Positions 2,992 to 31,215 of a stretch of DNA of 64,000 nucleotides are shown here, one piece after another (within the stretch, counting starts at the first letter, position 1; every line of letters starts with the position of its first letter). The DNA comes from an uncultured Actinomycetes bacterium (GTDB taxonomy: Bacteria > Actinomycetota > Thermoleophilia > RBG-16-64-13): assembly GCA_963806155.1 (NCBI GenBank), contig CAWDXC010000011.1:129819-193818 (forward strand). Reading direction: 5' to 3'. The translations under genes and the position numbers were made by a program. The notes beneath the pieces were generated by a model. The model worked only from the letters and a program-made list of their open reading frames with translations, was not told the origin of the DNA and made no database searches.

Positions 2992-3529
2992 TCGATGCGC
3001 GAGAGGCTCAGGCTGGGGTTTGCGTATGGACAGGCGGATTAGCCGTTCGTGGAACGTCTTCTCACACCGGTTTGGCGTGGAATGTGCATCCCCTTCGCCT
3101 CTTTTGAGCGACGAGCTGATAGCGGAGAGCATCTTCGGCTCCGCTGACTTCCGGTACCGCATCTCGAGCAATAGAGACAGGCGGCAGGAGCTGATTCGCG
3201 CTCACATGCGGCTGATCCTAGCCGCACTCCAGGCACGCAATAAAGGCGGGGATATCGAATCTGACTTCCGACGCCTTGACGGACTCGTCGAGCATTTCGT
3301 CACACACATGCCCCCGTGTCCCCCTTCTCTGCAAGTGCCGTACGGGGAAAGCTGAACTCTGCAGAAACAGCGCGCGCCCACGTACTCGCTCGGTCCAGTG
3401 CTGTGTCATATGATATTACATTTGACACTAGTAACCTAGACGTGGCAGTATTTGAACAGCAACACCCAGGCATGCAGTCGTGTTGGACCTGAGTGATCAA
3501 GCGACATATCGTCGATTCGAGAGGGAGAG

Positions 3530-5056
3530 GTGGAGATGGGTGCCGAGGCGAGTAGCAAGACGCCGGATATTCAGGCCGATATCGTCATCGTCGGTGCAGG
3601 GGGCGCAGGCCTGGCGGCTGCCATCACCGCGGCCGAGAAGGGCTGCAATAGCATCATCCTCGTGGAGAAGACCGGGTCCCCCGGTGGTAGCACTGCCATG
3701 GCCCACGACATCTTCGGTGTCGAAAGTCCGGTGCAGGACCGCGCATGGATGGACACCTCGAAGGACGAGATCTTCAATATCCACATGGATTGGACCCACT
3801 GGACCGTGGATCCGCGCATCGTGCGGATGTTCGTCGACCGGGCAGGTGACACCGTTCGGTGGCTTGAAGAAAAAGGGATGGAGTTCCGGCTCTGGCCGAT
3901 GTATCCGAATCAGGCGCCGATCATCCGCCACGCCATCAAGGGGCGGGGAGTCGAGCTGTGCAAGATGCTTCGCAGGAACGTCGAAGAGCTGGGAGGCAAG
4001 ATCCTCACCCGCACAAAGGTGACCAAGATCCTGCGTGCGGATAGCGGTGAGGTGACCGGCATCGTCGCCCAGACTAAAGACGGCGAGATTGCCATCGGGG
4101 CCAAGACGGTCATCATCAGTACCGGTGGATATGGCGCCAACCGCGAGATGCTGAAGAAGTACTACCCGTACTACCACGACACCATGGAGTACGACGGCCC
4201 GCGCAATAACACCGGTGATGGCATCGTTCTGGCCCAAGAGGCGGGCGCGGCTCTTGCGGGTTTGGGTTCGATGAACCTGAGTGGCCCAAGCAGCCTGCCT
4301 CGCTCCGGCAACGACTTCGTGAATGTCGATGGAGCAGTGGATGCCAAGGGTGATCCCCTGAAGATCTGGTTCACTCCATTCTTCCTTGAACCAGACTCCC
4401 TCTGGGTGAACCTGAACGGCAAGCGCTACGTGAACGAGGGCTACATCCTTCAATTCTTCGCCTACGGGCACATCACCGCCCGTCAGCCGCAGGGTCTGTC
4501 CTTCACTCTCTACGATAGCGACGCCATCCGTCGCAAAGAGAAAGAGGGCATCTACAACCAGATGGCGCCCTGCTGGTTCCCGGCCGAGACCTACGTGTGC
4601 CACATCCCGCTGCCCGGACTGGAGCGAGAACTGCGCAGGCCCAACGATCTCATCAAGATCGCCGACACGATCGAGGACCTTGCCGAGTGGATGGGCGTGG
4701 ACCCTGCAATGTTGAAGGCCACCATCGATGAGTACAACGCGGCCTGCGATGCGGGCTATGACGGTGTCTTCGGCAAGGACCGGAAGTACCTGCAACCGCT
4801 GCGGACGCCGCCGTTCTTCGCGCTCAAAGGCCACGTAAACATCTGCGACACCATCGGCGGCATCAAGATTAACGAGAAGATGGAAGTCATCGACGTCGAG
4901 GGCAAGGTCATTCCCGGTCTCTACGCTGCCGGCGTGACCACAGGCGGTTGGGAAGGCGAGACCTACGACTATAACCTCACCGGCCACCTGGTGGGTTTCG
5001 CCGTCAATTCGGGTCGCACTGCCGGCGAGAGTGCGTACGCATACGTGGGGAAGTGA
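3530..5056 (+). CDS. FAD-dependent oxidoreductase, fumarate-reductase / 3-ketosteroid-dehydrogenase-like flavoprotein (FAD_binding_2)
   Basis: Dinucleotide-binding motif DIVIVGAGGAGLAAA, plus GSxxM, ISTGGYGAN and HLxGxxVxNSGRTAGE motifs. GTG at 3530 or ATG at 3536 with RBS GAGGGAGAGG. 508 aa. Confidence 0.8.
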   Translation: MEMGAEASSKTPDIQADIVIVGAGGAGLAAAITAAEKGCNSIILVEKTGSPGGSTAMAHDIFGVESPVQDRAWMDTSKDEIFNIHMDWTHWTVDPRIVRMFVDRAGDTVRWLEEKGMEFRLWPMYPNQAPIIRHAIKGRGVELCKMLRRNVEELGGKILTRTKVTKILRADSGEVTGIVAQTKDGEIAIGAKTVIISTGGYGANREMLKKYYPYYHDTMEYDGPRNNTGDGIVLAQEAGAALAGLGSMNLSGPSSLPRSGNDFVNVDGAVDAKGDPLKIWFTPFFLEPDSLWVNLNGKRYVNEGYILQFFAYGHITARQPQGLSFTLYDSDAIRRKEKEGIYNQMAPCWFPAETYVCHIPLPGLERELRRPNDLIKIADTIEDLAEWMGVDPAMLKATIDEYNAACDAGYDGVFGKDRKYLQPLRTPPFFALKGHVNICDTIGGIKINEKMEVIDVEGKVIPGLYAAGVTTGGWEGETYDYNLTGHLVGFAVNSGRTAGESAYAYVGK

Positions 5057-5082
5057 CTTCTTCATCGACTAAGGGAGCCTAG

Positions 5083-17481: not shown

Positions 17482-19694
17482 ATGAGCGCCGAGCTCGTGC
17501 AGCTGCTTGGCCGAGATGGCCCTAACGAGCCAGAGGAGGTCCTCCACGTGAACCCCGAAAAGCATCTTAAGGTGACGGCCGGCCACCTCGAGCGGCGTGC
17601 CTATCTTTACGTCCGCCAGAGCACGCTCCGGCAGGTCCTTGAAAACACGGAGAGCACCAAGCGCCAGTATGCGCTAGGGAACGAGCGATCGCCTTGGGTT
17701 GGCCCCTGAGCGGATCGTGGTCATCGATCGCGATCAGGGGCTCTCCGGGGACAGACAGCGACCGGGAGGGCTTCCAGCAGCTCGTGGCCGCTGTGGGGTT
17801 GGGCGAGGTCGGAGTGGTGCTCGGCCTCGAGGTCTCCCGCCTGGCCCGCAGCTCGTCGGACTGGCACCGGCTGCTTGAGATCTGCGCCCTCACCGACACG
17901 CTCATCCTGGACGAGGACGGCCTCTACGACCCCGCCCATTTCAACGATCGGCTGCTTCTTGGGCTCAAGGGCACCATGTCGGAAGCCGAGCTCCATGTGC
18001 TGCGCGCCCGGCTTATCGGCGGGCAGCGGGCCAAGGCCGCCCGGGGGGAACTTCTGATGAAGCTGCCCGTGGGACTGGTCCACGACGCCGCCGGGCGGGT
18101 CGTTCTCGACCCTGATCTGGCCGTGCAGGAGGCCGTACGCACCTTGTTCGCCACCTTCCGCCGCACCGGTTCGGCCACCGGCACCGTGCGCGCCTTTCGG
18201 AAAGAGGGCCTCCTCTTCCCCCGCCGGCTTTCGACCGGACCAAACAAGGGGGAGATCGCCTGGGGACCGCTCCTCCACAGTCGCGCCCTGAGAGTGCTCA
18301 AGAATCCCCGCTATACGGGCGCCTTCGTATACGGGCGCAGCGAGACCCGACACCGTGCGGGCGGGAAGGAGAGCCGCCGAGCACTGCCTCGGGAAAAGTG
18401 GCACACGGTGATCCTCGGGGCGCATCCCGGATACTTAAGCTGGGAGGAGTACGAGGCGAACCTCGCCCGCCTCCGTGAGAACGCCCAGGCGAACGGCGCC
18501 GAGCGCCGCAAGAGCCCCCCGCGGGAAGGCCCCGCTCTCCTTCAGGGCCTCGTCGTTTGCGGCCGCTGTGGCGGGCGCATGACCGTCCGCTATTACGTGA
18601 GCCACGGCCAAGTCGTTCCCGAGTACGTCTGCCAGCGGGAGGGGATTGAGAAGGCGGAGCCTTTCTGCCAGCGCCTGGTCGGGGCGCGCAATCGACCAGG
18701 CGGTGGGGGAACTCCTCGTCGAGACGGTGACCCCGCTTGCCCTGGAGGTGGCTCTCGCCGTACAGGAGGAACTTGAAGCCCGCGCCCGCGAGGCCGACGA
18801 CTTGCGCCGAAAGCAGGTGGAACGAGCCCGCTACGAGGCCGAACTCGCTCAGCGCCGCTATCTCCTCGTCAGTCCCGAGAATCGCCTGGTGGCCGACTCC
18901 CTGGAGGCGGACTGGAACCGCAAGCTCGGGCCTTGGCTGAGGCCGAGGCCAACTACGAGCGCCGGCGGGAGGCTGACGGTGGTGTCTTGAGCGGCGAGGA
19001 CCGATCGCAGATCCTCAGCCTTGCCGCCGACTTTCCCCGTCTGTGGCGGGATCCCGCTGTGTCACAACGAGAGCGCAAGCGCATGCTGCGTCTCCTGGTG
19101 GAGGACGTCACCCTCGTGCGGGCCGAGGAGGTTCTCGTCCAGGTGCGCTTTCGGGGCGGGGCCACCGAGTGCCTGCACCTGCCGCTCCCCCTAAATGCGG
19201 CCCAGTTGCGCAAGGTCGATCGGGCCGTGGTGGCCGAGATCGATCGACTCCTTGACGAGCATACCGACGCCGAGATCGTCGACATCCTAAATGCTCGGGG
19301 TCTGCGGCCCGGAGTGGCCGACCGCTTCAGCCTCCGGATCCTCTACCGCCTCCGGCGCACCTACGGCTTAGAGGACCGCTACACCCGCCTGCGCCGCCAA
19401 GGACTACTCACGCTCACGGAGATGGCCACGCTCCTCGGCGTCACCCCCTGCACAGTCAAGATCTGGGCCCGGGAGGGCCACATCCCCTCCCAGGTCTACA
19501 ATGACAAAGGCCAGCGGCTCTATGAGCGCTCGGCCAGCCTCCAGCAGTCCTGCCAGTGGTGTGGCCGCCCCATACCTGCCGTGCCCTCGCTCCGCCGGGG
19601 CAAGAAGTGGTGCAGCCAGCGCTGCTTGCTCCAGGCCTATAACAGCCGGAAACGAGCGGCGAGACAGGGCGCCCGGCAGGAGAAGGTGGCATGA
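17482..19694 (+). pseudogene. Large serine recombinase (resolvase/invertase catalytic domain + recombinase domain + zinc-ribbon/coiled-coil), multiply frameshifted
   Basis: Catalytic N-terminus …RRAYLYVRQSTLRQ… is in frame 1. It is followed by …ERIVVIDRDQGLSG… and …GFQQLVAAVGLGEVGVVLGLEVSRLARS… in other frames. The recombinase domain (17694..18776 frame), the coiled-coil segment (18646..) and the C-terminal RLWRDP…RERKRMLRLLVEDVTL motif (18933..19694) are each in a different frame, giving four or more frameshifts. Confidence 0.7.
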
Positions 19695-19744
19695 ACAGCG
19701 AGGATTTCATGTCGGATGTGCTGAACGAGGAGCAGTCAGATGCG

Positions 19745-20562
19745 CAAGCCTTGGCTTTCGGAGAGCGTATCGGGGTGTAGATGACGCGCACTCCCTCCGT
19801 GCGAAACACCTCGTCGAAAGGTCCCGAGTACTTGGCGTCGCGGTCATGGATCACGAACTGGACCTGAGCCAATCGATCTTCTATGGCCAAGTTGCGAGCC
19901 TGCTGGGTGACCCAGGAAGAATCGGGATGGGCACTGACCCCGGCCAGGTGCGCCTTGCGGGTCAAGAGCTCGATGAAGAAAAGGACGTAGATCGTCTTTG
20001 ACCAGACGGTCTCTACGCAGAAGAAGTCGGACGCCAGGATGCCGGCCGCCTGCTGAGTCAAGAACTCCCTCCACGAAGGGCCGACTCGTCGCGGAGAAGG
20101 CGGGAGACCGTGACGGCGAAGCAGTAGGCAGATGGCGGTTGCCGAAACTGAGACGCCCAGCTTCCTTAGCTCACCCTGGAGGCGCCGGTAGCCCCAGCGG
20201 GGGTTCTCCCGAGCGAGCCGCAGGACGAGCGTCGCCACCTCCTCCGAGATTCTCGGTCGACCCGGCCGGCGTCTACCTCGGTAGGTCCGCTTGCGTCCTA
20301 CCAGCTCACGGTGCCAGCGCAGCACGGTGTGTGGCGAAACCGGCAGACATCGCCACAGTTCACGCGGCAGGAGCTGGCTTGCTGCCGCCAGCAGGATCCG
20401 ATCCCCACGCCGTAGTCCCAGCCGACGACCTCGTGAGAGAACGCGCAACTGGTGACGCAAGACCAGGATCTCAATGTCGCGAGCAGCACCGTCACGATCG
20501 CTGCCTAGGGTGAGAACACGCAGAAGCCGACGGAGGGCAAAGTAGAAAAGCGACAGTAGCAT
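19745..20562 (-). pseudogene. DDE (rve) transposase, C-terminally truncated
   Basis: The ORF-track frame continues to 19456, but the residues after …RSPKA are unrelated read-through that overlaps the serine recombinase remnant. Confidence 0.65.
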
Positions 20563-20651
20563 CCGGACTCCAGGATGAAGAGGTGGCTGGAAGCCGTAAT
20601 CCTAGCGGATGCCGGCGCCAATACGAGCAGGTACAGAGTTTATGGACCCCT
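19745..20651 (-). mobile_element. Truncated IS copy (rve/DDE integrase-core transposase family, IS481/IS3-like); 3' part missing
   Basis: The transposase N-terminus MLLSLFYFALRRLLRVL…DRDGAARDIEILVLRHQL… and the DDE core up to …VIYTPIRSPKA are present. Homology stops near 19745, before the expected C-terminal NAxxERxxRTxxxE block. The ~90 nt beyond the ATG (20563-20651) are shared with the other copies and define the IS end. Confidence 0.65.
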
Positions 20652-21086
20652 CAGGATGACATCGGTAGAGATGAAGGTGCCTTTGCAGCCATAAAGCAGA
20701 CCGACGAGTTCAAGCGGCGCGCCCAGGTCTACAGGGATTTCATTCAGCCGTCGAAGCCGGCGAAGTAAGTTCAAAGCGTGGCCGCCGAGCACGTTCTTTG
20801 AAGCCGCAGAGATCTTGCGAGTGTTCGTGCAGGGCACCGACCTCAACAGCTACGAAGGTGAAGGCCTGCGCTACGCCAACCACCACTCTCTGCGCAACTA
20901 TGGCGGGCACGTCGTCTACACCGAAGCCGGGTAAAACAGCCACGTGCTGTTACCGATGGTGGAGGCCCGGTCGTGGGCCGGGCCTCCGGAGAGCTAGAAC
21001 GGATCACACGGTGGAACAGCCAGCGTTCTGTCGCCCGACTATCGAGAGAGCCGTGGACGAGGCGCTGATCGCCTTAGGGACCGTGG

Positions 21087-21584
21087 TCACATGACCGGAC
21101 CAGGCTCCTCCACTAGTTCATCGAAACAGAAGATGACGTGGCTGATCTCTTTGTTCCGGTAGCCGAACAGCTCGGTGTCACCGGTCGCTCCCGAGCCATA
21201 GGAGAACAGGTTCGCTCCCCGTCCGGCTTTGACGATTACCGCAGAGATCGGATAGGTCGAGCTCCAGTCGAAAGCGTAGCCGTTGCTGTTCGAAATGGTT
21301 ATAGTAAACGAGATGTCGCCATCGGGGCACGTGCAGGTAACCTCATAGGTCCCGTCCATTCCGGCGACCGGGTCCCATTCGTCGAGCTTGTAACCGCAGT
21401 CATATCCCTGTGAGGCCGCCACCCACGAAGCATCACCAGATTTCCAGTTATCGATGACGGTCGGCGACACACTTGCTGCCGCCGCTGGCGCCGTGAGTAA
21501 TGCCGCCAGAACCAGAGCCAGCAAGATGATGAGTGCTCCCGCCTTCGGACGACGTCCTGACCTGCGACTTCTACGCCCTTCCAT
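21087..21584 (-). CDS. Hypothetical secreted or membrane-anchored protein
   Basis: Arg-rich N-terminus followed by a hydrophobic signal/anchor (ALIILLALVLAALLTAPAAAAS). 165 aa. Isolated between two IS copies. Confidence 0.4.
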   Translation of the reverse strand: MEGRRSRRSGRRPKAGALIILLALVLAALLTAPAAAASVSPTVIDNWKSGDASWVAASQGYDCGYKLDEWDPVAGMDGTYEVTCTCPDGDISFTITISNSNGYAFDWSSTYPISAVIVKAGRGANLFSYGSGATGDTELFGYRNKEISHVIFCFDELVEEPGPVM

Positions 21585-22001
21585 CTTTCCTCCTTGAGTA
21601 GCAGTTGCTTTTTGCCGGTACTGCCTTCAGAACCCAACATCGGGGTCCGTCATGTCACGTGCTGTCCCGGGGGACTGGAGCTTTGGCGACTTCGGGCAAC
21701 CATTTCGCGCCCTCGGAGGTCGAAGCACCCCAGTTTTCAGCAGTGCTTGGCAGAGAGCGGCTTCTCCTGAGTTGTATCGACCATCAGCACTTTCTGCTTT
21801 AGTGCAATGGGACAGAGCCGGGCTTTCAGAGGTCAGTCATCTCTGTGGACAGGCACCGGAGGAAATACCTGCTATGGAACACGTTGGAGTAAGCAATGGA
21901 CACATCACTCTGGAACTCTTAATCCGACGGTGGTGGTTGAGCCCATCACCCCGGAAGTGGCGAGGCCGGCGTCGGGCCTCCTCACTCGCGTCCGAAGAGA
22001 G

Positions 22002-22202
22002 GTCAGCCTCGAAACCCCAGGTCCCGAGAAATGGCGGTACCCGCCCGCCTGATCGCCGCCGCGATCGATTCCCGCTCGGCCGGACCGAAGCGGTCGACAG
22101 GAACCACCACAGCCATGGTCGCAATCACTTCCCCGGAGCTATCCCTGACCGGGACCCCTACCGCACAGACCCCTTTCGCTGTCTCTTCGATGTCCCAATC
22201 CT
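22002..22202 (-). pseudogene. IclR-family transcriptional regulator, C-terminal 66-aa fragment truncated by IS copy 2
   Basis: DWDIEETAKGVCAVGVPVRDSSGEVIATMAVVVPVDRFGPAERESIAAAIRRAGTAISRDLGF matches the IclR effector-domain C-terminus. The upstream portion is replaced by the IS sequence starting at ~22190. Confidence 0.5.
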
Positions 22203-22690
22203 TAACTCACCCTGGAGCCGGCGGTAGCCTCAGCGGGGGTTCTCCCGAGCGAGCCGCAGGACGAGTACGGCCACCTCCTCCGAGATTCTCGGTCGACCCG
22301 ATCGCCGCCTGCCTCGGCAGGTCCATTTCCGCCTCACCAGCTCACGGTGCCAGCGCAGCACGGTATGTGGCGACACAAGCAATGACTGCCACCGTTCGCG
22401 CGGCAGGAGCCGGCTTGCCGCTGCAAGCAGGATCCGATCCCCACGCCGTAGTCCCAGCCGACGACCTCGTGAGAGAACGCGCAACTGGTGACGCAAGACC
22501 AGGATCCCAATGTCGCGAGCAGCACCGTCACGATCGCTCCCCAGGGTGAGAGCACGCAGAAGCCGACGGACGGCAAAGTAGAGAAGCGCCAGTAGCATCC
22601 GGACTCCAGGATGAAGAGGTGGCTGGAAGCCGTAATCCTAGCGGATGCCAGCGCCAATACGAGCATGGACAGAGTTTATGGACCCCTCAG
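22190..22690 (-). mobile_element. Second copy of the same IS, retaining only the ~500 nt of the left end
   Basis: 122-aa transposase N-terminus (22230..22598), ~90% identical to copy 1. It carries a W-to-stop (TGA) at the position matching copy-1 PRWGYRRL. The 90-nt terminal segment at 22599-22690 is identical. Confidence 0.6.
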
Positions 22691-22758
22691 CTATACTCGC
22701 TCATGTTGGTGCGCACAGCTGACTGGGCAACGATTCGCCCGAGATTGGGGGACACCAA

Positions 22759-23799
22759 ATGGTCATAGATATCAACATGCACGCCTTGCCCGCCGACCTT
22801 TTCGATGACGAAGAGAGGTTGGAGTCGTACCTCCGCATCGCCCCTCAAGGACACGGCGAACACGCGAGGCTCTCGACCGTGCCGGAAACCGGCAAGAAGC
22901 AGATCGTCGTCGAGAAGCCCCGCGGGTACGAGAATCTCAACTTCGGCTACAACAACGTCGATTCGCGGGCCAGGATCGAGGTCATGGACAGGGCCGGGCT
23001 GGACAAGGCCATCCTGCGTACGCCCTGCTGGCACGAATGGTTGACGCTCGAGATGTGCCGGCAGGTGAACGACAGCATGGCCGGGTATGTAGCTGAATAC
23101 CCGGACAGGCTGTGCGCGCTTGGCACGGTGCCGCCGTGGGGCGACAAGGGCTGCCTGCGGGAGCTCGAGCGCTGCATCGGCGACCTGGGTTTTGTCGGAA
23201 TGGAGGTCTCCGCCCACTACGGCAGCCTCTATCTGGACGACACGGCCTTTCGGCCGTACTTCAAAGTGCTGAACGAGCTCGATGTGCCGGTGGTGGTCCA
23301 TCACACTCCTCTGCCGGTGGAGTACGGCAGCCTCTTCGAATACACGAATCTGCGTCGCTCGATCGGACGGTGCATCGACCAGATGACCGCGGTGGGCAGG
23401 GAGCTGTTCAGCGGGCTGTTCGAGGAATGTCCGAATCTCAAGCTCGTTCACACCATGCTCGGCGGCGGCATGTTCGCCCTCACTGAACAGATACTGCCGA
23501 GGAGATCGCAGGTGCAGGAGGAGATCCAGAGGTTCAGCTCGGAGGTCCCCCGGTTCAAAGACTACTTCCGAAGGAATCTCTACTTCGATATCACCACGCC
23601 CCTCGCGTGGAGCAAGGCCCAACTCGAGTGCGCGGTCAAGGAGCTGGGAGCGGACCATATCCTATACGGCAGCAGCTACCCGGTGAGGTTGGACTGGGTC
23701 CTCAATGGGGTGGAGCACGTCAAGAGTCTCGACCTCACCAACCAGGAGAAGGACCTGATCTTTTCGGGGAACGCGAGAAGGCTTTTCAAGATCAACTAA
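22759..23799 (+). CDS. Amidohydrolase-2 (ACMSD-family decarboxylase/hydrolase)
   Basis: 346 aa, ATG at 22759. Conserved blocks with predicted metal ligands are present (e.g. VVHHTP and a C-terminal Asp). Lies between IS remnants 2 and 3. Confidence 0.75.
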   Translation: MVIDINMHALPADLFDDEERLESYLRIAPQGHGEHARLSTVPETGKKQIVVEKPRGYENLNFGYNNVDSRARIEVMDRAGLDKAILRTPCWHEWLTLEMCRQVNDSMAGYVAEYPDRLCALGTVPPWGDKGCLRELERCIGDLGFVGMEVSAHYGSLYLDDTAFRPYFKVLNELDVPVVVHHTPLPVEYGSLFEYTNLRRSIGRCIDQMTAVGRELFSGLFEECPNLKLVHTMLGGGMFALTEQILPRRSQVQEEIQRFSSEVPRFKDYFRRNLYFDITTPLAWSKAQLECAVKELGADHILYGSSYPVRLDWVLNGVEHVKSLDLTNQEKDLIFSGNARRLFKIN

Positions 23800-24004
23800 G
23801 AACTCGTTTCAAAATGCCGCAAGGGACGCGCTGGGCGAGCACGAGAGAAGAACGCAGGGAGCGCGAATAGCGGCGCTACGTGCGCGACCGAGGACGCGCT
23901 ATCGTGCCGTTCCTCGCAGAGGGGACCCGGCACTAGGCGTGAGGGGTACATTTACTACGATTCACGCTGCCATTGTGTTGATACTCGTGAATTAGTCCGC
24001 CGAG

Positions 24005-24208
24005 CCGGTGCCAGGATCTCAACATCGCGAGCAACATTGGCACGATCACCATGCGCAGCTAGAAAGCGCAAGAGGCGGCGAACGGCCGAGTAGATGAGCG
24101 AGAGCAGCATCGGCAATCCACAGAAGTAGGTTGGGAAACCCTGATCCTAAGAAATGGTGCGGCTCAGATGGGCGACTAAGGGTTTGTGGACCCCTTAGGA
24201 CCAACGAA
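24005..24208 (-). mobile_element. Third, more divergent remnant of the same IS left end
   Basis: CCAGGATCTCAACATCGCGAGCA…GAGCGAGAGCAGCATCGGCAATCCACAGAAGTAGG…GGTTTGTGGACCCCTTAGG aligns with 20470-20651 of copy 1 at ~75% identity. Only ~25 codons of the transposase remain. Confidence 0.45.
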
Positions 24209-24249: not shown

Positions 24250-24594
24250 TCACCGACCGAGCACGACGTCGATCCCATACAGGATCAGCTCCAGCTTGTT
24301 CTCCGGCAGCCTGCCGACTAGGTCGGTCAATACGCCAAGGTCCAGGGTGACCGGCTGGGAGACGTTGGCGACGGAGTCCTTGGGCAGACCGGTCACCTCG
24401 GAGGTGAGAAGGACGTTACCGGGCGCGTCGGCCCATTTCAGGTTGCCGGTAAGCGGCACGCACACTACCGTTGAGATACGGCTGCGGTTGAACGCGTTGC
24501 CCTGCACGACGACGACAGGGCGACGGAACCCAGGCTCGGAGCCTTTTGGCTCGCCCAGATCAGCCCACCAGACCTCGCCTTGCGAGATCACCAT
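24250..24594 (-). CDS. mazF: Type II toxin, PemK/MazF-family endoribonuclease
   Basis: MVISQGEVWWADLGEPKGSEPGFRRPVVVVQ… is the typical MazF/PemK N-terminus. 114 aa. Overlaps the upstream antitoxin by 7 nt. Confidence 0.8.
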   Translation of the reverse strand: MVISQGEVWWADLGEPKGSEPGFRRPVVVVQGNAFNRSRISTVVCVPLTGNLKWADAPGNVLLTSEVTGLPKDSVANVSQPVTLDLGVLTDLVGRLPENKLELILYGIDVVLGR

Positions 24595-24824
24595 TCGGAC
24601 TGCTCGAGGGTGCGCTTCGCAGCGGTCGCCGTGAAGTCGTCCACCGCGACGGTTCCGTCAGCGCACAGTGAGTCCAGCGCGGCGGTGACGCTATCTGAAG
24701 AGTGGCGCGCGACGTACTCGCGCACCGCGCGGCTGTACAGCTGGCTGCGGGACTGCTTGAGTTCGCGCGCGAGCTGCTCCGCTTCGCTGAACACGTCGTC
24801 AGGTATTGAAATCGCTGTCTTCAT
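24588..24824 (-). CDS. mazE: Antitoxin (MazE/RHH or AbrB-like), partner of MazF
   Basis: 78 aa. MKTAISIPDDVFSEAEQLARELKQSRSQLYSRAVREYV is a DNA-binding antitoxin-like N-terminus. ATGGTGA overlap with the toxin start. Confidence 0.6.
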   Translation of the reverse strand: MKTAISIPDDVFSEAEQLARELKQSRSQLYSRAVREYVARHSSDSVTAALDSLCADGTVAVDDFTATAAKRTLEQSEW

Positions 24825-25125
24825 ACCAGAAGTATAACCCGCTGAGGGGCGCTATGCCTACCCCGTGGCATTCAAGCGGTGCGACCCGGAATCACGCTGC
24901 GGCCAGCAGCAGACGTCGACCTACTTCTGCGCGCTTCTGCCTGTGGCACCTCACCTCCACGATCACTCGGCCCACGTCCAGGCGCCTGAGGGCAATCTCG
25001 GCATAGGAGTCGGCGTGGGCGTAGTAGTGATCAGGGCTTCGTCGTACCCAGCGAGCCCGCTTGGCCCCGGTCTCCGGGTCCTCATCTACGGTGCGCAGGA
25101 TGTTGGTGAGCTTTGCCGCACGTCG

Positions 25126-25345
25126 ATTGTTCGTAGACTGGATCAGGATCTGGCCGGCGCTTACCGGGCTTCTTGAGGCCATGAGATCAACGGCCGCGAT
25201 CGAGGAGGCGTGGTGGCTGCGACTTGCCCAGACCCTGACCGAGAATCGAGCCGCTCTGCGTGCGGAGGGTTTTGAGGTCGAGATCGGCGACTTGCGGGGA
25301 TAAGACCAAGACGCTACGACAGCCGCTCCCGGCCCTACTCCACCG
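25126..25345 (+). repeat. Partial duplicate of the 3' end of gene 30054..31070 plus ~45 nt of its downstream sequence
   Basis: ~95% identical to 30816-31104 except for a 78-nt internal deletion. Encodes LFVDWIRIWPALTGLLEAMRSTAAIEEAWWLRLA…AALRAEGFEVEIGDLRG*. Confidence 0.6.
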
Positions 25346-25558
25346 GCTCGACCGACCTGACAGATGGGGCACCGGGGACGAGCCACCAAGGTCAGTGAGC
25401 CCGTTCCCCGGCACTGAGGGATCGCCGAAACGCCGGCCAAGCACAGGGTGAAGATGCCGAAGACCGGTTAGGAAGGGGCCCCCGGGGGCTGGGTTGGCGG
25501 CCTCGCCTTCTGGGTAACTTTGGCTTGATTCAGTAGCGAATCCAGCAAGGAGCGGCCC

Positions 25559-27855: not shown

Positions 27856-28690
27856 CTAGTGTTTGAGTTGATAGGTGATGGTCACGTTGATGTAGATGTC
27901 CAAGTTCTGAGGGTTGATCGGCGGGGGAGAAACCGCGGCGCCGGCCGTGGTCGTAGTATATGCGGCTTCTCCCCCGTAGTAGTAGACAGGGGACGAGTAG
28001 CCCTCGGTAAGGACGAGCACGTCGCCCAGGGTCACTCCGTTCGCAGCGGCAAACGCCTCGGCTTTGGCGTGGGCTTGGGCAGAGGCTTGGGCGAGCGCTT
28101 GGGTCTGGGCTTTGGTGTTATCGGAGAGCTGCCAGGTAGGGCCGGAGAGGTTGTTGGCCCCAGCCTCGGCCGCGGCGGCGAATACGCTTCCAATGGCGCT
28201 GAAGTCGGTCAGGGTGACCTTCACCGAGTTTGAGGCCTGGTAGCTGGTGCCGGTCTGCTTGCCGGTCTTCTGGTCGTAGACGGGGATACCCGTAGACACT
28301 GACGTTGGTGGTCTCGACGGCCGAGTCCGGTATCCCGTCCGCTTTGAGACGAGCAAGGACGTCCTGCATTTGTTTGGAATTGGCATCGAGAGCCGCTGCT
28401 GCCGTAGCCGCGCTGCCTTGAACACCTATGTTGATGACGGCCTGGTCGGGAAGCGCGCTCATGTGACCGGTGCCGGAAACGGTGACGGTGTGAAGAAGAG
28501 GACTCTGCGCTTCTGGTGCGCTGACTGTCGTCGTGGTCGAGATCTGCGTTTGAGTCGACCCGCTAGCCGTGGTTGTCGAACTTCCCGCCGTTGTTGACAC
28601 GGTTGAACCCGAGGCGCAGGCGGCGACGCCGAAGACCAACAGCGCGAGCGCCAACACAACGCCGCCCGCGAGCGTCAACCTTTTCCCCAT
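27856..28690 (-). pseudogene. SIMPL-domain (DUF541) lipoprotein with a single +1 frameshift
   Basis: The N-terminal part (lipobox VAACASGS, …QAVINIGVQGSAATAAAALDANSKQMQDVLARLKADGIP…) is in the frame of 28118..28828. The C-terminal part (…PQNLDIYINVTITYQLK) is in the frame of 27856..28425. The junction is near 28290 (GGTATCCCC). Confidence 0.6.
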
Positions 28691-29015
28691 CCTGGTGAAT
28701 GGCACGGTGCCCCCCTTTCTCGTGGATAGCCGCAGCCGCTCCCTCGGTCTGCCAGCGAATCCGCGTGCCCCCATAAAGCTCTCAGTCACGTTCGACTGCT
28801 GGCGTCCCGAGGTTGTTCCCAACAGCACCAGACCATGTTACTCCTCGCCTGGACGTCACCATGTGTGCATCGTGTCTGCTCTGGTCGCCCGGGGTGCCCG
28901 AGGAATCCCCGGCGAGGTACGATTGGGTCTACATCTGGATGTAGCTCCAACCGCAAGTGACTCGACTCCCGCGCTACACGAGCTCTGGTGCCAACTGCAA
29001 CGAGGCGATCCCTAA

Positions 29016-29192
29016 ATGACAGCGTGGCGAGTCGATCATCTTCTTGTCGTCGATGTGGAGACGACCGGCCTGTACAACTCGGACCGGGTTGTGGAGGTAG
29101 CCGCGGTGACGCTGTCGGCGGGCGGACAGATCGTCGACTCCACCATCATCATCGGGCCCTGGCGGACGCACGTGCGACTGCGCGACTTCTGA
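29016..29192 (+). pseudogene. DnaQ-like (DEDDh) 3'-5' exonuclease, N-terminal 58-aa stub
   Basis: MTAWRVDHLLVVDVETTGLYNSDRVVEVAAVTLSAGGQIVDS… carries Exo motif I, then stops after 58 codons. Confidence 0.4.
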
Positions 29193-29437
29193 TCGCTGCC
29201 CGATGCGAGGTGGACGAGTCTTCGCCCGCGAGAGTCGGGAGTCTTAGCAGCCCGGCCTGCCCCCGCACTCTTCGACGGGACGCCGTTTTCGCCGATACCA
29301 GCGCAGAGGTGCCCTACCCCGCACTTCTTTGCCGGTACAGCCGGTCCTTCTCGGCCTTGGTATTCCGCCGGAGGACTTCTATTGACCATGTAGAAAGGTC
29401 ATAATGACCGTGTCAAGTAGTCATAGGAGCGCGGCTT

Positions 29438-30061
29438 TTGGGGGGACAGGTGTTCAACCAGCGAGAATCAGTGGACGAGGCTTTCTCGCTCTTGAGTGCT
29501 GCTCTTGAGGCGGAAGGGCACGGGCTCTGCGAGATTGTCGTCATAGGCGGCGCGGCGCTCAGCATTCTGGGCTTCGGCATCCGTCCAACAAAAGACGTCG
29601 ATGTTCTTGGGTTGTGCGAGACATCAGTCAACCCTGCGCGACTTGTTGTGACTAAGCACAAACCCCTTCCGGCACCGCTGCTTCAGGCAGCATCTCAGGT
29701 TGCAGACGCTCTCGGATTGAGTTCTGATTGGCTGAATGCCGGGCCGGCCGACCTCCTGGATCAGGGGCTGCCCACAGGTTTCGAACAGCGACTGATCGCC
29801 AGAAGGTACGAGCCACGTCTCACGGTGTGGCTACCCGCACGCGAGGATCTCATTTGCTTCAAGACATACGCGGCTGCTGATACCGGCATTGGCCGGCACA
29901 CAGAAGATCTTCGTGCTCTTCGGCCGTCTTGCGAGGAGTTGCTCGCCGGCGCCTTGTGGGCACGATCACAGGACCCTTCCGAAGCCTTCAGGGACATGCT
30001 GGTCGGGTTGCTTCGGTACTTTCATTGTGAAGAGGCGGCGGAGGAGATTGGCCATGGATAG
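29438..30061 (+). CDS. Minimal nucleotidyltransferase-fold protein (Pol-beta superfamily)
   Basis: IVVIGGAALSILGFGIRPTKDVDVL fits the hG[GS]x9-13DxD nucleotidyltransferase motif. TTG start with AGGAGC 8 nt upstream. 207 aa. Overlaps the next gene by 8 nt. Confidence 0.55.
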   Translation: MGGQVFNQRESVDEAFSLLSAALEAEGHGLCEIVVIGGAALSILGFGIRPTKDVDVLGLCETSVNPARLVVTKHKPLPAPLLQAASQVADALGLSSDWLNAGPADLLDQGLPTGFEQRLIARRYEPRLTVWLPAREDLICFKTYAAADTGIGRHTEDLRALRPSCEELLAGALWARSQDPSEAFRDMLVGLLRYFHCEEAAEEIGHG

Positions 30062-31070
30062 ACGCAGCCTTATCGAGCAGGGTCTCAGAGAAGCAACGCT
30101 CGAGCTGTGTTGGAGGCAATGGACCGCTGCGGGACTGGCCGGAACACAGGAAGAGTCGAGAACTCTCATCGACCCGGAGGCTCTCCTCGTCGCCTCTCTC
30201 ACTCTGGGGCGCTGCGACGCTCGTCTGTTCGATGAGCTACTGGACTGGCTGATCGGGAACTGGCAACTTCTTGATTCTGCACGTCTGAAGCGGATTGCCC
30301 GGGGCGCTTCGCCCAGCGAGCGTGCGTTGCTCGCGGTTGCTAGTCAAATGGCGTCCTCGGGTAAAGGGGCAACGAAGCTCCGAGACGTGCTGGCACGTGA
30401 TCTGGAGCAGCGGACGACCGCTTCGGACGCACCCCAGAGCCTCTTCTTCTCCCAGACGAGGGAGGAACAAGATTGGACACAGCCCGATCCCGTCTTTGAA
30501 GCGGCCGGGTTTCTCCGGTCGCCCGTTCATCTTCGCGGACTCTCTCGCCGGCCTAGAGTCTCGAATCCCGCCTGTCTGCGGTTCAAGCTGCGAGCGCTCG
30601 TCGGTATCGGATCAAGGGCCGAAGTGCTCGCCTATCTCCTCACCCATGACTGGACTCATGGGCGATTGATTGCCGATCGTGCCGCCTACCCGCAAGGACC
30701 AGTCGCCTCCTATCTTGTTTCGCTCTTCGAAGCGGGCATCGTGGATCGCCGCCAGGAGGGAAAGAAGGCGCTCTATCGTCTTGAGGAGGATGTTCGGAGC
30801 GCCTTCGTAGCAGATCCATTGTTCGTAGACTGGATCAGGATCTGGCCGGCGCTTACTGGGCTTCTTGAGGCCATGAGATCAACGGCCGCGATCGAGGAGG
30901 CGTGGTGGCTGCGACTTGCCGAGGCCCTGACCAAGAATCGAGCGGCTCTGCGTGCGGAGGGTTTTGAGGTCGAGATCGGCGACTTGCGGGGATGGGGGCT
31001 TCAGGGAACCAACATCCTCGAACTTGCGCTAACGAAGGTGACAATGAGAGTCAGAGAGCTCTCGGTCTAA
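30054..31070 (+). CDS. Hypothetical protein with a C-terminal winged-helix (ArsR-like) DNA-binding domain
   Basis: 338 aa. AEVLAYLLTHDWTHGRLIADRAAYPQGPVASYLVSLFEAGIVDRRQEGKKALYRLEE is a wHTH. No HEPN Rx4-6H motif is evident. Its 3' end is duplicated at 25126-25345. Confidence 0.5.
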   Translation: MDRRSLIEQGLREATLELCWRQWTAAGLAGTQEESRTLIDPEALLVASLTLGRCDARLFDELLDWLIGNWQLLDSARLKRIARGASPSERALLAVASQMASSGKGATKLRDVLARDLEQRTTASDAPQSLFFSQTREEQDWTQPDPVFEAAGFLRSPVHLRGLSRRPRVSNPACLRFKLRALVGIGSRAEVLAYLLTHDWTHGRLIADRAAYPQGPVASYLVSLFEAGIVDRRQEGKKALYRLEEDVRSAFVADPLFVDWIRIWPALTGLLEAMRSTAAIEEAWWLRLAEALTKNRAALRAEGFEVEIGDLRGWGLQGTNILELALTKVTMRVRELSV

Positions 31071-31104
31071 GACCAAGACGCTACTACAGCCGCTCCCGGC
31101 CCTA

Positions 31105-31215
31105 CTCAATGAGCGAAAGCAGCGTCGGAACTCCAAAGTGAGGTGGGCCGAGGAACCCTGATCCTAACGAATGCTGCCGCTCACGCGAGTGGGTTCGGGG
31201 TTTGTGGATCCCTTG
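31105..31215 (-). mobile_element. Fourth remnant (~110 nt) of the same IS left end
   Basis: CTCAATGAGCGAAAGCAGCGTCGGAACTCCAAAGTGAGGTGGGCCGAGGAACCCTGATCCTAACGAATG…GGTTTGTGGATCCCTTGTGG aligns with 24095-24208 and 20540-20651. Confidence 0.4.

Follow-up and report, generated by a model that had tools for sequence, protein, structure and literature searches.

The subject of this study is a two-gene cassette located in a stretch of 64,000 nucleotides (nt) of DNA, hereafter the window, on contig CAWDXC010000011.1 (assembly GCA_963806155.1) from an uncultured Actinomycetes bacterium. The first gene (gene A) encodes a small nucleotidyltransferase (NTase), and the second (gene B) encodes a larger protein of an unclassified family with a predicted winged helix-turn-helix (wHTH) domain. 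Here, we describe the two genes and their upstream region, compare them with related loci in many bacterial phyla and evaluate what the pair might do; it is probably a toxin-antitoxin (TA)-like module associated with defence. Gene A residues are numbered from GTG 29450, and all operator, promoter and codon positions are window coordinates. Related loci are designated by L-numbers, of which L005 is a contig of an uncultured Gaiellales metagenome-assembled genome (MAG). The features of the cassette are as follows.

29351..31105, + strand: cassette unit comprising promoter/operator, NTase gene, gene B and a tail of ~35 nt; one block in common with L005
29377..29405, + strand: putative sigma-70-type promoter, with -35 TTCTAT (29377-29382), a 17-nt spacer and -10 CATAAT (29400-29405)
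29382..29402, no strand: operator inverted repeat 1, TTGACCA-N7-AGGTCAT, in the promoter spacer; aligns with ATGACCG-N7-CGGTCAT
29404..29424, no strand: operator inverted repeat 2, ATGACCG-N7-TAGTCAT, covering the -10 and the transcription start region
29426..29429, + strand: GGAG, at the position of the ribosome-binding site in relatives (upstream-region alignment)
29450..30061, + strand: gene A, DUF6036/MenT1-like NTase of 203 amino acids (aa) (Pfam DUF6036, family profile, AlphaFold (AF2) model)
29546-29551, 29582, 29588-29590 and 29594-29596: key codons of gene A for G33G34, R45, T47 and D49
29600-29602, 29861-29863 and 29906-29908: key codons of gene A for D51, K138 and D153
30054..30061, + strand: 8-nt overlap ATGGATAG, with the gene B start codon within the NTase gene end
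30054..31070, + strand: gene B, 338 aa, unclassified family (AF2 model; no Pfam or NCBIfam family at threshold)
30054-30413: N-terminal helical domain of gene B (aa 1-~120), its most conserved part
30567-30803: central ArsR-like wHTH of gene B (aa ~172-250)
30693-30731: recognition helix of gene B (aa 214-226)
30804-31067: C-terminal helical domain of gene B, ~90 aa (aa 251-338)

The open reading frame (ORF) of gene A lies on the + strand, may start at TTG 29438 or GTG 29450 and stops at 30061. Translation from GTG 29450 gives 203 aa, and almost all homologues are likewise 203 aa long; because this length is typical of the family, GTG 29450 is the preferred start and TTG 29438 (207 aa) the alternative. 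The ORF of gene B (30054-31070, +; 338 aa) opens with an ATG inside the end of gene A. An earlier sequence-only reading of this DNA had noted two + strand genes overlapping by 8 nt, the first with a GGx(n)DxD NTase motif, and both are indeed present, the motif reading G33-G34 ... R45-P-T47-K-D49-V-D51. This agrees with the Pol-beta-type metal-binding site of MenT/AbiEii toxins, in which a Ser/Thr phospho-acceptor (here T47 by position) stands two residues ahead of the first Asp.

The distribution of gene B was surveyed in one genome per GTDB species, and the loci were searched with our own hidden Markov models of both families. We confirmed 434 gene B relatives, which were found in many phyla and lineages, such as Actinomycetota, Coriobacteriia, Verrucomicrobiota, Clostridia, Acidobacteriota, Aminicenantes, Planctomycetota, Elusimicrobia and Omnitrophota; the closest one (93%) is in an uncultured Gaiellales MAG. 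An NTase match, either intact or remnant, was located directly upstream and on the same strand in 82 of 87 gene B copies. Conversely, gene B directly followed the NTase in all 75 NTase-anchored metagenome loci with downstream room, and for this reason the pairing is far beyond chance. The two genes overlapped in each of 124 distinct intact pairs, by 8-44 nt and always by 3n+2. Conservation of the cassette in other genomes, a check set before the survey, was thus found across phyla.

On the other hand, the two genes do not decay alike. Among the 77 gene B-anchored loci with enough upstream sequence, the NTase was intact in 58, fragmented in 15 and absent in 4, and gene B was always full length. 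The fragments carried internal deletions, had lost the catalytic N-terminus or were C-terminal stubs alone. No intact NTase without gene B was observed among the 75 NTase-anchored metagenome loci. Such one-sided decay is the pattern expected of a toxin and an indispensable antidote, with the NTase as the harmful member of the pair. Because it is the NTase that decays beside an intact gene B, it also speaks against the logic of type VII systems, in which gene B would be a toxin dependent on the NTase.

Several individual loci showed unusual arrangements. L002 (5577-5993) and L166 (7616-8011) contain an NTase of 131-132 aa that lacks the first ~59 residues (no GG...TxDxD) and still overlaps an intact gene B; this truncated form is common to distinct genomes. 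Two convergent cassettes are present in L034 (3586-6916, Verrucomicrobiia), one with a truncated NTase and the other with an intact NTase and a shortened gene B match. L004 carries two gene B paralogues on one contig (3058-4711 and 5907-7002), one of them 110 nt downstream of a classical minimal nucleotidyltransferase (MNT; NTP_transf_2) and the other preceded by a 34-codon DUF6036 remnant alone. The MNT-gene B arrangement may represent partner swapping or chance adjacency.

By sequence comparison, we assign gene A to the AbiEii/MenT superfamily of NTases as a small member, and not to the MNTs of HEPN-MNT modules. The sequence-only reading had called it a minimal NTase; it is not of the MNT type, as no match to PF01909 (MNT) was obtained. 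Gene A matches Pfam DUF6036 (PF19502) with 30.3 bits (cut-off 23.6; E=4.5e-7), as do all 41 of its aligned relatives, 19 of which also match Pfam AbiEii (DUF1814, PF08843) at E<=0.01 (best 5.8e-7). The window protein itself has no match at E<=1 either to Pfam AbiEii or in PADLOC-DB v2.

A single-sequence search of gene A against PDB sequences found nothing, and a family profile of 41 sequences was needed. This profile had two matches, the better of which was the Mycobacterium tuberculosis toxin MenT1 (8an4; E=0.0028). In the profile alignment, MenT1 T39/D41/D43/K137/D152 correspond to gene A T47/D49/D51/K138/D153 (the PDB chain index of MenT1 is one below the numbering used in papers). Across 245 unique NTases, gathered from the loci and from databases, these positions are nearly invariant: T47, K138 and D153 are conserved in 245, D51 in 244 and D49 in 242. 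MenT1 adds nucleotides to tRNA 3' ends, and D41, K137 and D152 are needed for its toxicity; its antitoxin induces auto-phosphorylation of the active-site threonine, T39, which switches the toxin off (PMC10435456; PMC11375011). In E. coli, MenT1 has no toxic effect. The AlphaFold model of gene A has a predicted local distance difference test (pLDDT) value of 95.4. Its best PDB neighbours in Foldseek are the fungal NTase-like protein 5uvd, ANT(2'')-Ia (5kqj, second) and several MenT1 entries; 8an5, 8an4 and 8rr5 rank 3-8, with template modelling (TM) scores of 0.43-0.51 and E values of 0.03-0.4, and ANT(2'')-Ia and 5uvd score similarly. Remote homology points to the MenT/AbiEii toxin NTases and away from ordinary metabolic functions, an assignment to which would have refuted the sequence-only reading.

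Gene B matched no family at threshold in Pfam or NCBIfam. Weak ArsR/TrmB-type matches were detected at aa ~187-250 (NCBIfam HTH_metalloreg, 21 bits against a cut-off of 55; Pfam TrmB, 17 against 25.6). Only weak wHTH-region matches were found in PADLOC-DB v2 (Csa3 and PDC-M05A; E>=2e-4), and a single-sequence search against PDB sequences returned only sub-threshold ArsR matches. With 43 homologues as input, AlphaFold gave a model of high confidence (pLDDT 91.7; predicted TM score 0.91), apart from low values at aa ~100-140, in the variable linker after the N-terminal domain. When this model was searched with Foldseek against PDB and BFVD, the winged helix alone matched (CadC, SmtB, HlyU, AspA and MarR proteins; probability 1.0 for the first four), and no structural match was found there for the N- and C-terminal helical domains. 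The wHTH that the sequence-only reading had placed at the C-terminus therefore exists, with its position corrected to the centre of the protein.

The same reading could assign gene B neither to AbiEi nor to HEPN partners, and our searches agree with it. AbiEi Pfam models matched none of 43 family members at E<=0.1, HEPN models likewise matched none of the 43, and the AbiEi structure 6y8q was not among the top 50 Foldseek matches. The HEPN motif Rx4-6H is absent from the window protein and not conserved in the family, which has no conserved histidine column apart from H202 (70%). Conservation is highest in the N-terminal domain (mean column identity 0.56), with invariant W23, G27, D40-P-E-A-L44, R57 and W65; the recognition helix and C-terminal domain are more variable. 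The family is large, with 3015 clusters of 50% identity at E<=1e-3 and 970 at E<=1e-30, and nearly all members are 330-350 aa long. A few proteins (P0205, P0292, P0286, P0268 and P0284) reach 520-780 aa and carry C-terminal DUF5677, Schlafen AlbA_2, DUF4238 or DUF1508+DUF2188; these are genuine fusions or else gene calls that ran on into a neighbouring gene.

Upstream of the NTase gene (29377-29424), two tandem 7-7-7 inverted repeats enclose the putative promoter, and the junction of repeats 1 and 2 is a perfect palindrome, GGTCAT-A-ATGACC (29397-29409). The same architecture was found in 14 loci (the window and 13 others) whose proteins are 45-93% identical, in the order TTGnnA, ATGACCG-N7-CGGTCAT, A, ATGACCG-N7-CGGTCAT, GGAG. 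Relatives have TTGnnA-17-CATAAT at the aligned position, and the -35 of the window is weak. A generic promoter/terminator scan reported no promoter at 29377-29405 and one weak upstream hairpin; the promoter is called because it is conserved across loci. The window and L005 have ~14 extra nt between GGAG and GTG 29450, and the G-rich stretch at 29440-29446 may serve as an alternative ribosome-binding site. Rfam and tRNA scans of the cassette region gave no matches.

In other clades, different repeats occupy the same place. We distinguished four operator classes, each with its own gene B recognition helix:

ATGACC/GGTCAT operator: recognition helix YGQAPVAxYL
GACTAC/GTAGTC operator: recognition helix YSQRQVSEYL
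ATGCTATTTATTGTGCG palindromes (Verrucomicrobia): recognition helix YFERAVQGTL
GATGTTnAACATC repeats: recognition helix YAKRNVxETL

This covariation of operator and helix fits a role of gene B as a putative autorepressor. As the sole DNA-binding protein of the cassette, gene B is the presumed binder of the operator.

The genomic neighbourhoods of the relatives were then considered. The end of hsdM directly adjoins the NTase start in 27 of 164 loci, and hsdS starts at or overlaps the gene B end in 25 of them (L058, 1898-6710; L037, L041, L042, L047, L051, L052, L056, L059, L062-L065, L068, L076, L080, L102, L105, L110, L120, L123, L130, L134, L145 and L148). The contigs of the remaining two end before the hsdS position. 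The hsdM and hsdS identities were confirmed by Pfam. Such nesting of the pair inside type I restriction-modification (R-M) operons was observed in Aminicenantes, Clostridia, Thermodesulfobacteriota, Verrucomicrobia and others. Other cassettes lie beside AbiE, MazEF, PIN-Phd, Fic or HNH genes, or alone among housekeeping genes, and the window copy itself lies outside any R-M operon. By association, the nesting in type I R-M operons suggests that the cassette may serve in defence. In L058, the gene that follows hsdS encodes a protein of 242 aa containing an HExxH motif. A small third gene that seemed to precede the pair in one clade (C-terminus '...LKELKKE...FKV*') was rejected, as it is the 3' end of hsdM.

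A comparison with L005 shows that the cassette behaves as a unit. Window positions 29351-31105 and L005 positions 3286-5040 are 94% identical over 1755 nt, and their flanks differ. In addition, the window holds the remains of another cassette:

25097..25371, + strand: remnant second cassette, with the last ~65 codons of a gene B paralogue and downstream sequence; a 74-nt deletion removes the gene end

The segment from 25097 or 25111 to 25301 is 93-94% identical to that from 30787 or 30803 to 30993, and after the deletion 25301-25340 matches 31068-31107. The remnant is closer to L005 (96% to 4738-4928 and 94% to 5003-5073) than to the intact copy of the window. Thus, the sequence-only reading was right that the 3' end of gene B recurs at ~25.1 kb, but this sequence is not a copy of the intact gene; it is what remains of a separate second cassette, which resembles the L005 allele more closely. 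From the L005-like remnant beside the intact copy it follows that the window once held two cassettes, and together with the shared 1755-nt unit and its differing flanks it indicates that the cassette moves or is duplicated as a unit. Among loci the flanking genes vary, the distribution is patchy and some genomes have several copies. A fragmentary ORF (24892-25110, -) without a Pfam match adjoins the breakpoint of the remnant.

Taken together, the cassette displays the general traits of TA systems, including adjacent co-directional genes, a conserved operator, mobility, a patchy multi-copy distribution and asymmetric decay. We consider it somewhat likely, on the evidence above, that the NTase is a MenT-like toxin and gene B both its antitoxin and an autorepressor, the two forming an autonomous, self-repressed TA-like module. 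This is in line with the sequence-only reading, which had proposed a variant of NTase-based TA or abortive-infection modules; the conserved cassette and the homology to MenT/AbiEii toxins support it.

Under this proposal, the winged helix of gene B would bind the two inverted repeats and repress its own operon, whose promoter is TTCTAT-17-CATAAT. Since the gene B start lies inside the NTase gene, gene B would be translated whenever the NTase is, presumably through coupling. By homology, the NTase (D49, D51, K138 and D153) may add nucleotides to tRNA 3' ends and so stop translation. Gene B would neutralise it, probably via the conserved N-terminal helical domain, and might do so by direct binding, by induced auto-phosphorylation of T47 (the counterpart of MenT1 T39 and MenT3 S78), or by both. 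Loss or inactivation of gene B, for example upon phage infection or stress, would then free the NTase and lead to growth arrest.

A bolder extension of this proposal, which is tentative and rather unlikely, gives the R-M neighbourhood a central place. Gene B would represent a new antitoxin/sensor class for MenT-like NTases, with a fold that, outside the winged helix, is unseen in PDB, and it would control the toxin by triggering auto-phosphorylation of T47. In hsdM-NTase-B-hsdS operons the pair would guard type I restriction: if the R-M complex were disabled by an anti-restriction protein of a phage, gene B would release the NTase and translation would be shut down via tRNA modification, which would amount to a PrrC-like back-up made from unrelated parts.

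Several points weigh against the TA proposal. The match of gene A to MenT1 is weak (E=0.0028; TM 0.45-0.5), and ANT(2'')-Ia is similar in Foldseek. Within the superfamily MenT2 is non-toxic, so toxicity does not follow from homology alone (PMC7450476). The toxin-first order proposed here is opposite to that of all four MenAT systems and AbiE (PMC7450476), and PADLOC v2 has no model for either cassette protein. The covariation of operator and recognition helix could simply stem from common descent in each clade. No gene B relatives were detected in IMG/VR viral contigs, phage GenBank records or PLSDB plasmids by tblastn, an insensitive search with one sequence, so that an origin on phages or plasmids has no support. 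Finally, toxicity, the tRNA target, the gene B-NTase interaction, T47 phosphorylation and a phage-defence role are all drawn from inference, not experiment.

It is also conceivable, if unlikely, that the two genes form a non-toxic regulatory pair, in which gene B is a transcription factor tuned by NTase nucleotidylylation, or by a ligand that the NTase makes or consumes, and no growth arrest occurs. The size and multi-domain build of this wHTH protein and the conserved operator at its own promoter agree with such a role, as does the occurrence of intact gene B without an intact NTase in about a quarter of the loci, like a free-standing regulator; and one member of the superfamily, MenT2, is known to lack toxicity (PMC7450476). 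However, there are no conserved flanking target genes: neighbours differ in every locus and the conserved operator is present only at the cassette's own promoter. Moreover, the multi-copy, patchy, mobile and R-M-nested occurrence is typical of TA and defence genes rather than of housekeeping regulators, and in the 75 NTase-anchored loci the NTase was never seen without gene B.

It is considerably less probable that the NTase nucleotidylylates a small molecule, either an antibiotic, as ANT(2'')-Ia does, or a metabolite, under the control of gene B as a ligand-responsive ArsR-like repressor. ANT(2'')-Ia (5kqj) is the second Foldseek match of gene A with about the score of MenT1, and ArsR/MarR-type repressors often control resistance genes. 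In sequence, however, the profile matches MenT1 and Pfam AbiEii and not ANT families, and the invariant T47 takes the position at which MenT toxins carry their regulatory phospho-acceptor. A simple repressor has ~100-150 aa, whereas gene B has 338 and is most conserved outside the wHTH; a universal overlap, NTase-only decay and a position within type I R-M operons would also be unexpected for resistance genes.

Reversed roles, with gene B as toxin and the NTase as an antitoxin acting by nucleotidylylation, are very improbable: the NTase is the antitoxin in HEPN-MNT modules (PMC3632139), where the NTase-first order is common, and one L004 paralogue of gene B lies downstream of a classical MNT gene, but about 19 of 77 loci have an intact gene B and no functional NTase, which would be lethal if gene B were a toxin in need of the NTase, neither HEPN Rx4-6H nor any other nuclease motif is present in gene B, and gene A is of AbiEii/MenT and not MNT type. 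The toxin-antitoxin proposal agrees better than any of these three alternatives with the way the genes decay, with their genomic contexts and with the family placement.

The surroundings of the cassette in the window contain the following features.

17694-18776: serine recombinase
18933-19694: MerR/HTH_17 protein
19456-20655: fuller insertion sequence (IS) copy, with an HTH_32 transposase gene at 19456-20562 on the minus strand; its L005 relative also has rve_3
22206-22690: decayed IS copy
24019-24202: IS-end remnant
24250-24594 and 24588-24824, - strand: MazF (PemK) toxin (Pfam PemK_toxin, E=2.9e-23) and ribbon-helix-helix (RHH) antitoxin (RHH_1, E=3.4e-4)
29016-29192, + strand: RNase_T/DnaQ-type exonuclease stub of 58 aa, with the DVETTG motif kept
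31112..31213, - strand: IS-end remnant at the right flank of the cassette, 74% match to L005 2110-2207 and window 24094-24196; the IS is of the HTH_32/rve_3 transposase type

Thus, 17694-24202 together with 31112-31213 is a region rich in mobile elements. The MazEF genes, exonuclease stub and IS ends reported by the sequence-only reading were recovered as MazF with its RHH antitoxin, the RNase_T stub and the IS-end remnants. The MazF/RHH pair is context only and lies outside the cassette. The setting that they form is a mobile-element scar more than a classical defence island, and the link to defence comes from the relatives in type I R-M operons. The RNase_T stub ends ~160 nt left of the edge of the cassette unit (29351), as if truncated by insertion. 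A SIMPL/DUF541 gene (27856-28828, -) is split into overlapping ORFs (27856-28425 and 28118-28828) and is probably a frameshifted pseudogene. A repeated element of ~100 nt (24094-24196 and 31109-31214) was considered as an RNA gene and rejected, as it is the IS end and the Rfam and tRNA scans were empty.

The MenT/AbiEii NTases are increasingly recognised as toxins that modify tRNA and as effectors of phage defence. To our knowledge, the antitoxins described for them come from three families with no relation to one another, and every one is encoded ahead of its toxin. If the proposal is correct, gene B would add a fourth partner family, with ~3,000 clusters of 50% identity in many phyla and a confidently predicted, unmatched architecture. 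It would also provide a functional hypothesis for Pfam DUF6036, which until now has been only a domain of unknown function. With 203 and 338 aa and a defined 43-bp operator, the pair is a compact model for studying how general antitoxin-induced auto-phosphorylation is and how such modules cooperate with restriction systems. Our literature searches on DUF6036 and on NTase genes between hsdM and hsdS yielded no description of the pair.

Among the known systems, MenAT1 of M. tuberculosis (MenA1-MenT1, Rv0078B-Rv0078A) is alike in having an NTase of ~200 aa from the AbiEii/DUF1814 superfamily, a two-gene operon and aligned catalytic and regulatory residues. However, MenA1 is a helical peptide of 68 aa with no DNA-binding domain and is encoded upstream of the toxin, as are all of MenA1-4 (PMC7450476), whereas gene B is a three-domain wHTH protein of 338 aa encoded downstream and overlapping. 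The similarity of MenT1 and gene A is marginal in sequence (E=0.0028), with 16% identity in structural alignments.

AbiE (AbiEi-AbiEii) and MenAT3/MenAT4 (COG5340-DUF1814) likewise pair an NTase with a wHTH protein and have inverted repeats at the operon. In these type IV TA or abortive infection systems, which are widespread, mobile and defence-associated, the wHTH antitoxin autorepresses via the inverted repeats (PMC7450476; PMC3632139). AbiEi is encoded first and combines an N-terminal wHTH with a C-terminal antitoxicity domain, whereas gene B is encoded second and has a central wHTH; AbiEii and MenT3 have ~250-300 aa compared with 203 in gene A. HEPN-MNT modules (type VII), which are abundant in defence and mobile contexts, share the order of NTase gene and then partner gene. 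They consist of a PF01909-type MNT antitoxin and a HEPN RNase toxin, whereas here the NTase family is different, no HEPN motif is present and decay points to the NTase. The sequence-only reading had rightly set the cassette apart from both MNT-HEPN and AbiEi-AbiEii. The NTase comes first in 124 of 124 pairs, and gene B is unrelated to the known MenA and AbiEi antitoxins.

Outside the NTase modules, PrrC of the EcoprrI system is a single anticodon nuclease whose gene lies in a type I R-M operon and which is held inactive by the R-M complex. The relatives of the cassette between hsdM and hsdS resemble it in location and in their predicted tRNA-attacking effector, but comprise an NTase with its own regulator. 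The ArsR/SmtB repressors share with gene B the fold of its central domain, weak sequence matches below curated cut-offs and a palindromic operator over the promoter; they are single-domain dimers of ~100-120 aa, whereas gene B has two further conserved helical domains that lack a structural match. Compared with all these systems, the cassette shows no categorically new mechanism; its novelty lies in the partner family of the putative NTase toxin, in the reversed order of the two genes and in the repeated occurrence of the pair within type I R-M operons.

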